DNA from: a virus
Lineage: Duplodnaviria > Heunggongvirae > Uroviricota > Caudoviricetes
Strand: one strand, 5' to 3'
Length of the DNA stretch: 13,210 nucleotides
IMG/VR virus record: IMGVR_UViG_2671181040_000012
Position numbers: made by a program. Shown in pieces: positions 3,001 through 9,000 of the stretch (positions are counted from its first letter, which is position 1; each line of letters starts with the position of its first letter).

Positions 3001-6000
3001 ACGCGAAGCGCGTAACCATTGCCCGTCTGGTTGTGTCGCTGTATTCGCCGCCCGTATTCGTCAGGAGGTGCGCCATGTGCAATAACACCCGTCCGGACGC
3101 AGCCGCCGAAGCAATCAGAACGCTGATGCACGCGCTGATTGATATTTCTGTTATCGCAGACAGGGCACATAAGCACGCCACCAGCGAAACAGAATATGCC
3201 GTGGCTTTCGTTCCTCACTCACTGGCTGTTATGCAATTTAGTGCTGATATGGCGCTGAATGAGGCAGGCAAAATTCTTACCGCAGATATTCAAGGGGCGC
3301 ACCATGCATGATGACCGTTATTTTAAATCAATGAGCCATGCAGAAAATGCGCTGACTAACAGTGAATGCTTGCGGCAAATATTGCTTATCTGGCTTGATG
3401 GTTTAAGTGATGCGCCGGAAGATGAACGTGAATCTAATCTTGCTGGTGCGTTTATTTCATTACTCGATACGGTAATCGTCGAATTAAATAAAGCGATCGA
3501 AATTCACGATAAAAAAATAAACGCGGAATAAAAACCATGAAACAGAAAAATTCTGGCTTTACTGCCAGCGGCCCCGCTCGGCCTGAAATCCGCCCAGGCG
3601 ATATTTTCAAAGATAAATATGGTGGACGAATAACGATAAAAACCGTTGACGATTTTCGCGTGACTTATATCCGCGAAGGTTATGCGCATCCCTGCGTGTC
3701 GTCTCATATGCGTTTTGAGAGTGAATTCACCCTGGTAAGCAAAGCACCACCAGCGAACTTAAGCGACATCGACAGAATCATGCGCGTTACAGGAATGGAA
3801 CGCATTAAGGCAGTACGTGAAATTATTCGTGAACGGGGAAAGGCAAAATGAAACTGGCACCGAACGTAAAACTGTTACCGAAAGATAAAGGCGAGGATGC
3901 AGTGATTTTTGCGGGGGATGACGCATACAGCCATGCAGAGCATTACATGCAGGGCGGAGAAGCCAGAAAGCGCGGCGACAAAATACCACCTGTTTATCTC
4001 GGACGGCGTGACCTGGGTAATCTGGAAAACCTGCGTATTGTGGATGAGGGTCGGTCACGCGCCATCGTCAGACGTGCCGGAAAACTGGATGACAAACTGG
4101 CGCTACAGATTGAAACCCTGCTGGCAGTGGCTGGTGTTAAGGAAGCCTGTTTTTGTGACGAGAACGGCGATTTACTGGAGGACTGGACACCACAGCTTGC
4201 CCGACTGAAAGACGAATACGAGCGCGGGGAAAGTCTGGTGTTGCCCTTAAAGAAAAAAATCACAGAAAGCCAGGGCGATGATGAATTAAAGCCCCGCGTT
4301 GAAAGCCGCGCCGATGGTGTTTTCTGGGTAACGCCCAAAGTGGATAAGCAGTCAGGCGAAATTATCCGGCCTGAAACGTGGTTATGTTCCCCGCTTGAAC
4401 TGCTGGGAACGGGGACAATCGGCAAAGAACATTACCGCGTGATGCGCTGGAAGAAACCCGCAAGCCATGAAGTCATCACAATGGCGGTTCCGTGCGGGGG
4501 CATTGGCGATCGTGACGGCTGGCGGTTGCTGAAAGACCACGGACTCAATGTGACAACCAACGGCAAATACAGGGCTATCCTGGCTGACTGGATGCAGTTA
4601 AGCGGAAGCCATGAGGAATGGCAGTTAAGCACAACAACGGGCTGGCATTTTGGCGCGTACATCATGCCGGACGGTTCGGTCATTGGTGAGTCTGAAAAAC
4701 CGATTCTGTTTACCGGAAAAACTGCCGCTGTTAATGGCTATTCCGTGGCAGGAACGGCGGAGGGCTGGCGCGATACCGTTGCGCGGCTGGCTGGAGGCAA
4801 TCCCTTAATGATGCTGGGTGTGGCGGTATCGCTATCCGCACCATTAATCGGGCTGGTGGGGGCTGACGGCTTCGGGGTACATCTTTTCGAACAGTCCACA
4901 GCAGGGAAAACCACCACACAGAACATCGCATCAAGTTTATGGGGAGAGCCGGACGCACAACGGCTGACCTGGTACGGTACAGCGTTAGGTATCGCCAACG
5001 AGGCAGAGGCACACAACGACGGGCTGTTACCCCTGGATGAAATAGGCCAGGCCGGAAACGCGCGGGAGGTGTCAACGTCTGCTTATACGCTGTTTAACGG
5101 TTCCGGGAAATTACAGGGGGCGAAGGACGGCGGCAACAGGGAGATAAAACACTGGCGAACAGTGGCAATCAGTACCGGAGAAATGGACGTTGAAACATTC
5201 CTCAAAACGGAGGGGATAAAAGTCAAGGCGGGGCAGCTTGTCCGCCTGCTTAACGTGCCGATGGAAAAAGCCACACAATTTCACGAATACAGCACCGGAA
5301 AGGCGCACGCAGACGCGTTAAAAGATGCCTGGACAGAAAATCACGGGGCGGCGGGTCGTGAATGGGTTAAATGGCTGGCAGACCACCAGCAGGAGGCAAA
5401 GGACACGGTAAGGTCATGCCGTGAACGGTGGCGCAACCTGATACCGGAGAGCTACGGCGAGCAGGTACACCGCGTGGGTGAGCGTTTCGCCATACTGGAG
5501 GCCGCACTTGTGCTTTCCTGTCATGTGACTGGCTGGGATGAGCAGGAATGCCGCGATGCCATTCAGCATAATTTTAATGCCTGGGTGAAGGAGTTCGGCA
5601 CGGGCAACAGGGAACACAGGCAGATTATTGAACAGGCAGAGGCTTTTTTAGCGTCGTTCGGATTCAGCAGATACCTTCCGTGGCCCAACACCGACGAGCG
5701 TGATTTACCGATTAAAGAGCTTGCCGGATACAGAAAGGGGAGTATCAGAAACGAAGATGACGAGTTCCGTTTTTACACGTTCCCGCATGTATTTGAGGGT
5801 GAGATAGCACAGGGATTTAATCCGTCTCACTTTGCCCGCGCGTTGAGTGCTGCCGGAATGCTGGAAGCGGGTAACGATCGCCGTTACAAGAAAAAGGCGC
5901 TCGGCAGGATTGGGGGGAAGCAGCATGTTTTTTACGTGCTGATGTTCCAGCCAGAAAGCGAAGAAGATTAATTTTTTCTCGCGTGTAGGGTGAAAATTTT

Positions 6001-9000
6001 GCGGGTTATGCGGGTTATTTCTGTGGATAAGTCAGTATCCATTTGATTATTAAAGAAATGACAGAAAAATCGTAACCCGCAAAATACCCCAAATAACCCG
6101 CAAATGGGCCTAAATAACCCGCAAAAGCGCGATTATAACCCGCAAAATATCACTGTAATGGATGAAAAAAGGCCGGGTGTAACCCACACGGTTCTGTAGA
6201 TATACAAAAATTGAGGTGTTTTTATGTTTCTTGAAGCCATACCAAAAAGCATTTCTCCGGCTGTTCCTGGCTGGTGGGCAAGATTCCGGAATGACGATTG
6301 CGGCGAGTGGTGGAGTCCGGTTGCTGCATGGGCGATTTGCGATGTGTTTTATTCCGGTGATTCTGAGGTTTACTCTGAAATATTACCGGTACTCACTGGT
6401 GATATGGGAATGACACCACATCACAGCGCAGAGGGATATTGCGAATGCCTGTATTTGCCTGACACAAAATTCATTCTTTCAGATGAACCGGGAACGCTTG
6501 CATGGTATCCGGCTAACAGCACAGCGGAACAGGTGACAATCATCAACGTTAAAACCGGAGAGCAGACAGCATGACAGCACAGATAGCGGCTTACGGGCGG
6601 CTGGTGGCTGACCCGCAGTTAAAGACCACCAGCAAAGGGACACAAATGGCGATGGCGAGTATGGCGGTTCCCCTGCCGTGCAGCCAGGCGGATGACGGAA
6701 CGGCGACGATGTGGTTATCCGTCCTGGCGTTTGGCAGACAGGCCGACGCACTGGCAAAGCACCACAAAGGCGAACTGGTGAGCGTGGCGGGTAACATGCA
6801 GGTAAGCCAGTGGACAGGCCAGAACGGCGAAACGCGGCAGGGCTGGCAGGTTATCGCAGACAGTGTAATCAGTGCCAGAACGGCACGACCGGGCGGTAAA
6901 AAAGGCCAGCAGGGCCAGGCTACTGACGCACTGAACAGGGCAAAACAACAGGCGGGAAATGATGACCCGTACGGGGATAACATCCCGTTTTAATTCACAA
7001 CAGCGAACAGAGTAATTACAGGGGAAGGCATGACAAAGCTGACCATTAACCGAAAACCGAAAGGCATTTACGGCACGCAGCCAGAAACGACGCAGGCGGT
7101 GCAGCAGCAGGATAAAACCACATCGGCGCATAAAGTGATACCCGGCAATCAGAACACACAGCAGAGCCGCAAACAGAAGCCCACAGAGGCGACACCGTGG
7201 CGGCATATGACCAAACGCCAGCGCAAAAACCGCAGGCGCGTTAACCGCCTCACTGAGATGTGGCCTGACTTATTCAACAGGGAAGCGCCAAAGCCGCTGA
7301 AGGTGGGAATATTCGACGACCTGATGCAGGATATCGCCGCCAGGGGGCTGACATTCGGGCCGGGGGCATTACGTGCAACGCTGGCATCTTATGCGCAGTC
7401 TCCGCGCTATTACCGCGCCCTGATAGCTGGTGGTGCACGTTATGACCTGAAAGGCCAGCCATGTGGGGAAGTGACACCACAGGAACAGCAGGAGGCAGAA
7501 ACGCGGCTGATGGCACTGAATGAGAAGCGTAAACGCCGGACAGCAAAGGAGAAGACAGGCGCATGATTCACGACAGCAAAGCGGAAGAACTGGAGGCTAA
7601 AGGGCTGTACCGGAGAGCGGCGGCGCGGTGGGCTGAGGTTATGCAACTGGTGAACACCGATAAGGAGCGCGAACAGGCGGCAAAGCGTCGCGCGGAATGT
7701 ATCCATAAGGCAGCACGCCCACCCGTTATAGCGGATAACTTCGGGGCACTGAAAGAGGCTGTAAAACGTACTCATGCGGGAATGGGGATGGAAGACGCAG
7801 GTAAATCTGTCTGGCGGAACTATCCGAAGCAGCCGAACAACAACCAGTGATGCAGGATATTATCCTGAAAAATGACCATCACTCCCGTGGGCGGATAACA
7901 TAAAATTCTGCATATGCGCACACACAGACGAAGCCGGAACACTCCGGCTTTTTTTGCGGGTCCTCCCGGTGGGGTACCCTTGCCGCGGGGCGGCGGACGC
8001 GCGGAAAAAGGCTAGTTTTTGAAATTTCATTCGTCATCACCACAACTGTAATGAATTGATATTCAATATGTTTTATTTTTCTGGTGTCGATTTTGATTGT
8101 TTTTTGTTCATCGCTAACACCATTTATCTAAAGTTGTTCGCAAGATGCATGTTTAAAACATTCTGGAGCGGATATGGATCGAGAGTTAAAAAACCATCCC
8201 CTTCCCACCGTAAAAACTGCGCATCGATGTTAAGGATTGTTAAGGTGTTTTGCGCAACATTCGCGATAACCATGTTTAGAAATGCCAGGGTTATTTGCGT
8301 AAAAATGGCAGGCAGTGCAGGAGATTCACCAGGGGGAGAATTCGCAACCAGACATCAGGAATTTATGTCAGAGCTTAGCGGGATATGGTGTTATTGAAGG
8401 ATGGAAACAAAGCGACGACGGGAACGCCGCCGCTTGTTTTAATAATTTAACGAGACGCTAAATTACATATAGGTAACAGTCACTGGCAGGGAAGCTTTCC
8501 ACTGAATCTGGTCATCACTGGCCACAGCATTATTAAGAGTGATGGTAATGGCTTTGCCCTTTTCGATACCAGCGCCGTAAACACCAAAGAAGGTGGCGTT
8601 ACTGTCATCAAACTTTTCTACGCCAGTATCGCTCTGCATCTCACCTTGTTGTTTCCATTTCGTAACGAAATCAGAAGATAATGCGCTAATCAATCCCAGA
8701 GCCTCATTATTGCGCACAGCGGCAGCATTTTCCCCAAGACCGCCGTAGAATGCATCACTATTATCAGCGGCATATAATGCCTTGGAGCCTGTCTCTGAAC
8801 CGTCACTTGTTAACCAGGAAGATAAAGCAGCAGCAGAGAAGGGAGCGGTCATAGTGCCAATAGCGCTTCCTGATACATCCCGGACTGATAAAGTGACCGT
8901 AGTTACTCCGTTATTAAAACCGTTTATATCAACAGCATTGTTATAGCTAATTTGAGGTTTTATACCTTCACCTCCGGTAAAACCATTAACATCGGCATTA

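Follow-up and report, generated by a model that had tools for sequence, protein, structure and literature searches.

A putative iteron-based replication origin directly downstream of rep in a phage-inducible chromosomal island of Escherichia coli

Phage-inducible chromosomal islands (PICIs) carry their replication origins directly 3' of rep, with two sets of iterons placed around an AT-rich region (PMC6092414). In the Escherichia coli PICI EcCICFT073, the rep-ori segment replicates a temperature-sensitive plasmid (PMC6092414), and EcCIEDL933, the prototype capsid-forming PICI (cf-PICI), replicates upon induction by its helper (bioRxiv 10.1101/2022.09.08.507074). Autonomous replication driven by Rep and an origin needed in cis has been published only for SaPIs (Staphylococcus aureus pathogenicity islands; PMC9371898) and for EcCICFT073, the single E. 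coli PICI with a functional assay of its rep-ori (PMC6092414). The Rep proteins of SaPIs bind iterons by a C-terminal winged helix and are self-loading (PMC9371898). Here, we analyzed a 13,210-nt stretch of viral DNA (IMG/VR record IMGVR_UViG_2671181040_000012; Caudoviricetes), referred to as the window, which is a Gram-negative PICI inserted at tRNA-Pro. Its rep gene encodes a 707-aa DUF927 helicase-initiator and is directly followed by an array of iterons with the word TAACCCGCA. The sequence anatomy of this array, the conservation of its scaffold across Enterobacterales, the co-variation of the iteron with the Rep C-terminal domain and the homology of Rep to characterised initiator-helicases were all observed directly, and they make it highly probable that the segment 5998-6146 is the vegetative replication origin of the island.

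The SaPIbov1 Rep is a self-loading hexameric helicase, the core of which is homologous to that of the window Rep (E = 5e-15 by sequence and 8e-16 by profile against PDB 8tch, annotated as "Initiation of replication protein with helicase activity"). The origin of SaPIbov1 also lies directly 3' of rep, with short iterons in two opposed sets around an AT-rich region, and its specificity resides in the Rep C-terminal domain (PMC9371898). Unlike the window, SaPIbov1 has a Gram-positive host, iterons of 5-6 nt instead of a 9-11-nt motif, and a separate pri gene upstream of rep, whereas a primase is not recognisable in the window. SaPI islands are transcribed divergently and the window island unidirectionally, and the C-terminal domain of SaPIbov1 Rep has no detectable sequence similarity to that of the window Rep. 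The SCCmec Cch helicase (PDB 5dgk) also matches the window Rep (E = 2e-5) and shares the MCM-like AAA+ core, but it is encoded on a staphylococcal cassette chromosome and is not known to have a phased iteron origin of this kind beside it. The NCBIfam SCCmec Cch1 match to Rep is weak, and the match to PHROG 1139 begins at profile position 243. Judged from these homologies, the Rep core is an MCM-like AAA+ domain related to the self-loading helicases SaPIbov1 Rep and SCCmec Cch.

Among the E. coli PICIs, EcCICFT073 (pri-rep-ori) shares with the window the gene order DUF4222, rep, origin, hypothetical, single-stranded DNA-binding protein (SSB), PerC, and in both islands an AT-rich gap bordered by iteron sets comes directly after rep. 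Its Rep body, however, is unrelated (D5_N/DUF5906/Pox_D5, of the superfamily 3 (SF3) type) and its iterons are CTGTCTACC-like instead of TAACCCGCA. Only the N-terminal ~145-150 residues are common to both Rep proteins, with 41% amino acid identity, and EcCICFT073 was therefore rejected as a direct homologue of the window origin. EcCIEDL933 is much closer; the surveyed locus L008 lies in the EDL933 island, and its coordinates fit those of EcCIEDL933. The EcCIEDL933 Rep shares 82% amino acid identity overall with the window Rep (94% in the core and 89% in the C-terminal domain), and the iteron TAACCCGCA and the first iteron module are the same. EcCIEDL933 differs from the window in having a second iteron module (11 copies in total), a 47-nt spacer, a DnaA box reading TTATACACA rather than TTATCCACA, and a full capsid and packaging operon where the window island has only terS.

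Iteron plasmids such as pSC101, P1, F, R6K and RK2 resemble the window in their phased direct repeats beside an AT-rich region, the edge of which often carries a DnaA box. Unlike the window, they lack an opposed inverted arm, their Rep proteins are small winged-helix dimers or monomers with no helicase, and they depend on DnaA, DnaB and DnaC. A classical iteron plasmid replicon (RepA/pi/TrfA) was rejected for the window, since it needs a small winged-helix Rep without a helicase and the protein found here is a 707-aa AAA+ helicase type. The E. coli satellite phage P4 uses one multifunctional helicase, alpha, which binds repeated octamers by its C-terminus and is DnaA-independent. In contrast to the window Rep, alpha combines a primase with an SF3 helicase and has no DUF927 domain, and P4 requires two separated cis elements, ori and crr, with ori inside or upstream of alpha and not directly 3' of it.

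Iteron array downstream of rep

An exact TAACCCGCAAA occurs four times on the + strand, starting at 6073, 6094, 6115 and 6136, as found by direct reading, a repeat finder and a pattern search, with start-to-start distances of 21, 21 and 21. On the - strand, one exact TAACCCGCAAA is located at 5998-6008, and TAACCCGCATA at 6007-6017 is TAACCCGCAAA with one mismatch. The original prediction, made by reading the sequence, of four direct repeats at about 21-bp spacing and two inverted copies is thus borne out. With up to one mismatch allowed, the pattern search found six matches to TAACCCGCAAA in the whole 13.2-kb window, all of them within the array. In dinucleotide shuffles 0.32 matches are expected, and none of 200 shuffles reached six, so that a chance origin of the repeats was rejected.

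The first iteron (5998) begins 26 nt past the end of the DUF927 open reading frame (stop at 5971), in agreement with the predicted position immediately after the replication gene. The two iteron sets are separated by an AT-rich spacer of 55 nt (57 nt and 72% A+T when measured between the 7-nt iteron cores), where the GC content in 40-nt windows falls to 25-30% at approximately 6020-6070. The predicted perfect DnaA-box 9-mer is also present as TGTGGATAA, the complement of TTATCCACA; it sits at the left edge of the spacer, 5 nt away from the inner copy of the inverted pair. The repeats do flank the AT-rich stretch as described, but the earlier wording needs correction, in that the DnaA box lies to the left of the spacer together with the inverted copies, and the direct copies lie to the right (Table 1).

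Several other features were searched for in this region. The single-stranded DNA folding of the origin region is strong (z = -5.5); this is attributed to the inverted iterons and was not used as evidence for a hairpin origin. A structured RNA was rejected, with no Rfam family found anywhere in the window, and so was a promoter or terminator in the array, where matches, including weak promoter-like ones, are no commoner than in shuffled sequence. The integration host factor consensus WATCAANNNNTTR, sought as a site in the spacer, is not present in the origin. A text search of the literature for the iteron word returned no relevant paper.

Table 1. Positions of the putative origin elements, of rep and of other genes in the window.
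Feature	Position	Strand	Basis
Integrase (int), with arm-binding domain	1-1242
AlpA (alpA)	1768-1974
rep, 707-aa DUF927 helicase-initiator	3848-5971	+	Pfam DUF927, E = 3e-46
Rep C-terminal domain (residues ~597-707), putative iteron-recognition module	5636-5968	+	Co-variation; break in L010 DNA identity
Left arm, inverted iteron pair spaced by 9 nt	5998-6017	-	Repeat finder, pattern search
AT-rich spacer between iteron sets, presumed duplex-melting site	6018-6072		GC profile
Consensus DnaA box TTATCCACA (TGTGGATAA on + strand), overlapping palindrome	6022-6030	-
Right arm, four exact direct TAACCCGCAAA with 21-bp phasing	6073-6146	+	Reading, repeat finder, pattern search
Decayed iteron ATACCCCAAA at half-step position of right arm	~6084-6093	+
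Degenerate seventh iteron GTAACCCACA, probable vestige of second module's first copy	6179-6188	+	Repeat finder, comparison with L006-L008
116-aa hypothetical protein, downstream replication-associated gene	6224-6574	+
SSB, downstream replication-associated gene	6571-6993	+	Pfam SSB; RefSeq annotation of identical locus
ProQ/FinO-family gene	7030-7566
PerC-family regulator genes, two in one island	7563-7850; 12902-13210
F4/K88-family fimbrial subunit, lone	8463-9275	-	Pfam, E = 6e-53
Small terminase (terS)	9820-10404

Related origins and the Rep C-terminal domain

A Rep-profile scan using one genome per species retrieved 80 loci, which come from a wide range of Enterobacterales genera. With the window and seven E. 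coli loci added, there were 85 whose downstream sequence sufficed for comparison (loci are numbered with the prefix L). The iteron scaffold follows rep in 77 of the 85 loci, where a 7-mer is found in four or more exact copies, and usually in 5-13, within 450 nt after the rep stop codon. Over these 77 loci, the left arm consists of two to three inverted copies (a spacing of 9 nt was counted 71 times), the gap has a median length of 47 nt (range 44-77) and a median A+T content of 79%, and copies of the right arm are spaced by 21 nt in 90 cases and by 11 nt in 62, in the pattern 11/21/21. At least eight core copies are found in 43 of the 77 loci, which usually reflects a second iteron module. In that module, a direct copy and two inverted ones spaced at 21 nt are followed by an AT-rich gap and then by a further three direct copies at 9 nt. 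Only the first module is found in the window, L002-L005 and L010, and the second is present in the EDL933-type origins (L006-L008, ~3160-3325). The second module of L006-L008 opens with GCGTAACCCGCAG at the place equivalent to 6179-6188 in the window, and GTAACCCACA at that position looks like a remnant of such a module.

The repeated word differs between loci, and approximately 19 iteron classes were distinguished. Examples include TAACCCGCA, TAACCCAC, TAACCCGT, TGAACCAAC, TGAACCACG, TGAACCGAC and GAGACAAC, and further words are GGGACAAC/G, TGGTACAAC, TGACACACT, TACCCGAC and GGGATAA. Because every copy has been replaced in concert on an invariant scaffold, the sites are probably read by one co-evolving protein. 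The iteron class tracks the last ~50-110 residues of Rep. In a sliding window, the identity gap between same-class and different-class Rep pairs reaches 0.34-0.41 at residues 661-700 (nt 5828-5947), compared with ~0.10 in the core.

Two loci illustrate this relationship from opposite sides. The Escherichia albertii L010 Rep shares 96% amino acid identity with the window Rep in the core and only 33% in the C-terminal segment, and its iteron is GGGACAAG. In the Budvicia L067 Rep the core shares 54% and the C-terminal segment 80%, and its iteron TAACCCGT is near-identical to that of the window. At the DNA level, the identity of L010 to the window breaks ~330 nt before the rep stop codon. Its rep core is 92-94% identical to the window and its relatives and the last 330 nt of rep plus the origin ~60-66%, and the SSB gene directly downstream of the replaced origin is again 87-89% identical. 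From this comparison, what has been exchanged in L010 is exactly the C-terminal domain of Rep and the origin with its iterons, which argues against mere linkage to the downstream genes. The shared N-terminal domain is not the specificity determinant, since the EcCICFT073 Rep has it together with CTGTCTACC-type iterons. Co-variation and the natural swap in L010 indicate that the word bound by the C-terminal domain of Rep is very probably the TAACCCGCA iteron, in support of the original prediction that the iteron is the likely binding motif of the initiator. Membership in the family would give the recognition domain a winged-helix fold.

The window Rep also differs from its relatives at the N-terminus. 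Longer homologues of ~920-940 aa start with Zn_Ribbon_Prim and Toprim_3 domains, which the window Rep lacks. In the window clade, residues 1 to ~147 (nt 3848-4290) instead form a ~145-aa alpha/beta domain. Residues 20-125 of this region are the only confident part of the AlphaFold model of Rep, with a pLDDT of 70-88. Since Rep has no primase domain, it is expected that primers must come from host DnaG or from an unrecognised activity.

The features expected of a PICI origin are therefore found together at this locus. The array lies 3' of the initiator gene and contains opposed iteron sets, with at least two copies per side, around an AT-rich region. The initiator is by sequence a SaPI-homologous Rep-type helicase, and its cognate specificity is indicated by co-variation. 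The scaffold in 77 of 85 loci, the homology to SaPIbov1 Rep and the published PICI layout also favor the earlier proposal that this region supports autonomous replication of the island.

Several observations weigh against assigning 5998-6146 as the replication origin. With no primase domain recognisable in the window Rep, the replicon is not obviously self-sufficient. The window origin has a single module where EDL933-type origins have two, and its activity may be reduced. Approximately 8 of the 85 loci have no clear iteron array within 450 nt downstream of rep; such loci include L018, L053, L076, L084, L086 and L088, and these may be decayed elements or have origins elsewhere. A profile of the C-terminal domain, the putative recognition domain, found nothing in PDB. 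The winged-helix C-terminus of Cch aligns weakly to Rep residues 636-701, and hhalign against this part of Cch gave no more than a weak hint, so that the resemblance is not significant alone. The AlphaFold models of Rep and of its C-terminal domain are poor (pLDDT 51 and 46, respectively), and Foldseek with the poor Rep model returned only 8tch and 5dgk.

By analogy with SaPI Rep/ori, we infer the steps of Rep binding, melting, helicase loading and primer supply as follows. After helper-phage induction and excision of the island, the Rep C-terminal domain would bind the TAACCCGCA iterons, and Rep would act as an MCM-like self-loading hexameric helicase. One Rep assembly would form on the two left inverted copies and another on the four helically phased direct copies on the right, and the AT-rich spacer between the two assemblies would melt. 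The Rep helicases would then load themselves and unwind outward, while the single strands would be coated by the island SSB and the circle copied by host polymerase.

The DnaA box and alternative explanations

One alternative, which we consider unlikely, is that this is a DnaA-assisted origin in which the box recruits host DnaA, as in pSC101, P1, F and RK2, and aids melting or the entry of DnaB, DnaC and DnaG. The position of the perfect TTATCCACA, at the border of the AT-rich spacer and close to an iteron, is plausible for function and places a box beside the unwinding element as in DnaA-dependent origins. Host priming could also compensate for the Zn-ribbon/Toprim primase that the window Rep lacks in comparison with its longer homologues. 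Within the TAACCCGCA clade, TTATNCACA is kept at the same position in all eight loci from E. coli genome records, and the free N varies (C, A and G on the box strand) with the consensus respected. Another 61 members of the clade came from IMG/VR. In these, TTATACACA, TTATCCACA and TTATGCACA agree with the consensus, but nine loci carry a broken box (TTATATACA in six and TTACACACA in three). The box is mutated in approximately a fifth of the clade.

Conservation of the box among the homologous origins, however, was not found. Outside the TAACCCGCA clade, TTATNCACA occurs within 450 nt in 1 of 77 loci, where chance would give ~2.5% per locus, and with one mismatch allowed a box occurs in 4 of 72 loci compared with 5.5 expected. 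Even with one mismatch to TTATCCACA allowed, the other short primase-less Rep loci, L010, L011, L012 and L029, lack a box. The origin contains just one box, and the number of boxes is unremarkable, TTATNCACA being found twice in the whole window against 0.46 expected, which is no enrichment. SaPI-type Reps, moreover, self-load and require no host initiator (PMC9371898). Based on the scan of the 85 loci, the DnaA box was rejected as a feature of this origin family; it appears to be a feature of the lineage and not part of the origin design. The predicted box is therefore real, but it is no general property of these origins and gives no evidence of DnaA dependence. It would be a functional accessory of this sub-lineage at most, a role to which we give little weight.

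A palindrome, TGGATA-N6-TATCCA, at 6024-6041 overlaps the DnaA box. It was found only in the window subgroup, comprising the window, L002, L091, L106, L114 and L144. The palindrome might be the site of a dimeric protein, instead of or besides DnaA.

Two broader readings are, taken jointly, unlikely. In the first, the adjacent origin and the final ~110 codons of rep form a discrete, exchangeable specificity cassette that could serve as a replication-compatibility code, and in the second, the DnaA box at the edge of the melting region has been co-opted for host priming. For the cassette part, horizontal exchange could have given the ~19 iteron classes on a rigid scaffold across Enterobacterales satellites, and the code could act among co-resident islands. 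For the priming part, the TAACCCGCA-lineage Rep would have swapped the Zn-ribbon/Toprim primase for the ~145-aa domain that it shares with the SF3-type PICI Rep. Both the cassette and the DnaA-priming ideas go beyond published work. The comparative picture itself, with a rigid scaffold, ~19 classes and an exchangeable cassette, would be expected by analogy with SaPIs.

A mainly regulatory role of the repeats, with Rep, AlpA or PerC controlling transcription from rep into SSB and the late genes, or limiting copy number through handcuffing, rather than the start of replication, is improbable. The array does lie between rep and the co-oriented downstream genes of a unidirectional operon, and weak promoter-like matches overlap it, though no more than in shuffles. 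Plasmid iterons also serve autoregulation and handcuffing. The iteron class, however, follows the Rep C-terminal domain and not AlpA or PerC, and islands that share an iteron differ in PerC and in the gene that follows the origin. Opposed arms, an AT-rich gap and helical phasing are the geometry of an origin, and this geometry is conserved in 77 loci. The same region is needed in cis for replication in homologous experimental systems (PMC6092414). A regulatory role would in any case be compatible with origin function and not exclusive of it.

A packaging (pac) or recombination site, with the repeats bound by the small terminase or by the integrase arm-binding domain, is hardly credible: the island does encode TerS and such an integrase, and both kinds of protein read short repeats, but the same iterons occur in islands with different packaging (the cf-PICIs L002-L008, compared with terS only here), they lie ~3.7 kb from terS and ~4.8 kb from int with no more copies in the window, and the cassette swap ties them to the Rep C-terminus only.

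Island context and significance

In E. coli MB06102, the segment between tRNA-Pro/yejM and yejO contains the window at 100% identity; STEC313 is another strain that carries the island. With its insertion at tRNA-Pro, between yejM and yejO, the island measures ~14.5 kb, within the ~10-20 kb of its class. The gene order is integrase, AlpA, Icd-like, DUF4222, Rep, the repeats, hypothetical, SSB, ProQ/FinO, PerC, fimbrial subunit, TerS and a second PerC. Transcription of int, alpA and rep runs the same way, the attachment site is specific, and a full set of phage genes is absent. This unidirectional int-alpA-rep layout is of the Gram-negative PICI type (PMC6092414, PMC10111431).

Some PICI PerC homologues switch on the LEE pathogenicity island (PMC6092414). 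The fimbrial subunit gene is opposite in strand to the island, with neither usher nor chaperone genes close by, and is probably cargo with an accessory or virulence role. No gene is annotated at 10405-11886 (~1.5 kb) in the identical RefSeq locus, and the longest open reading frame there (10476-10991, - strand) has no Pfam match.

The island has terS, but capsid, portal and protease genes are absent from it. The closest E. coli relatives of the repeat region, L002-L008, are cf-PICIs with an HK97-type capsid and portal. Since the window island is terS-only while its nearest Rep and origin relatives are capsid-forming, the replication module appears to be shuffled among satellites of differing packaging strategy.

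A related origin is carried by approximately 250 of 5426 complete E. coli genomes. Some E. coli chromosomes have two to four separate matches to the origin, for example three in TUM1881. These several matches per chromosome suggest that islands of the same specificity co-reside, so that cross-activation or competition on induction may come into play.

The origin layout for E. coli PICIs was published in 2018, and the current picture of PICI replication is unchanged by the present results. What they add is where the cis-acting origin lies, and which word, probably TAACCCGCA, is recognised, in a widespread group of E. coli phage satellites, including the EDL933-type capsid-forming PICIs. With the C-terminal ~110 residues of Rep as the likely specificity module, these results would be of use for building minimal replicons, for specificity swaps and for the annotation of satellite origins.

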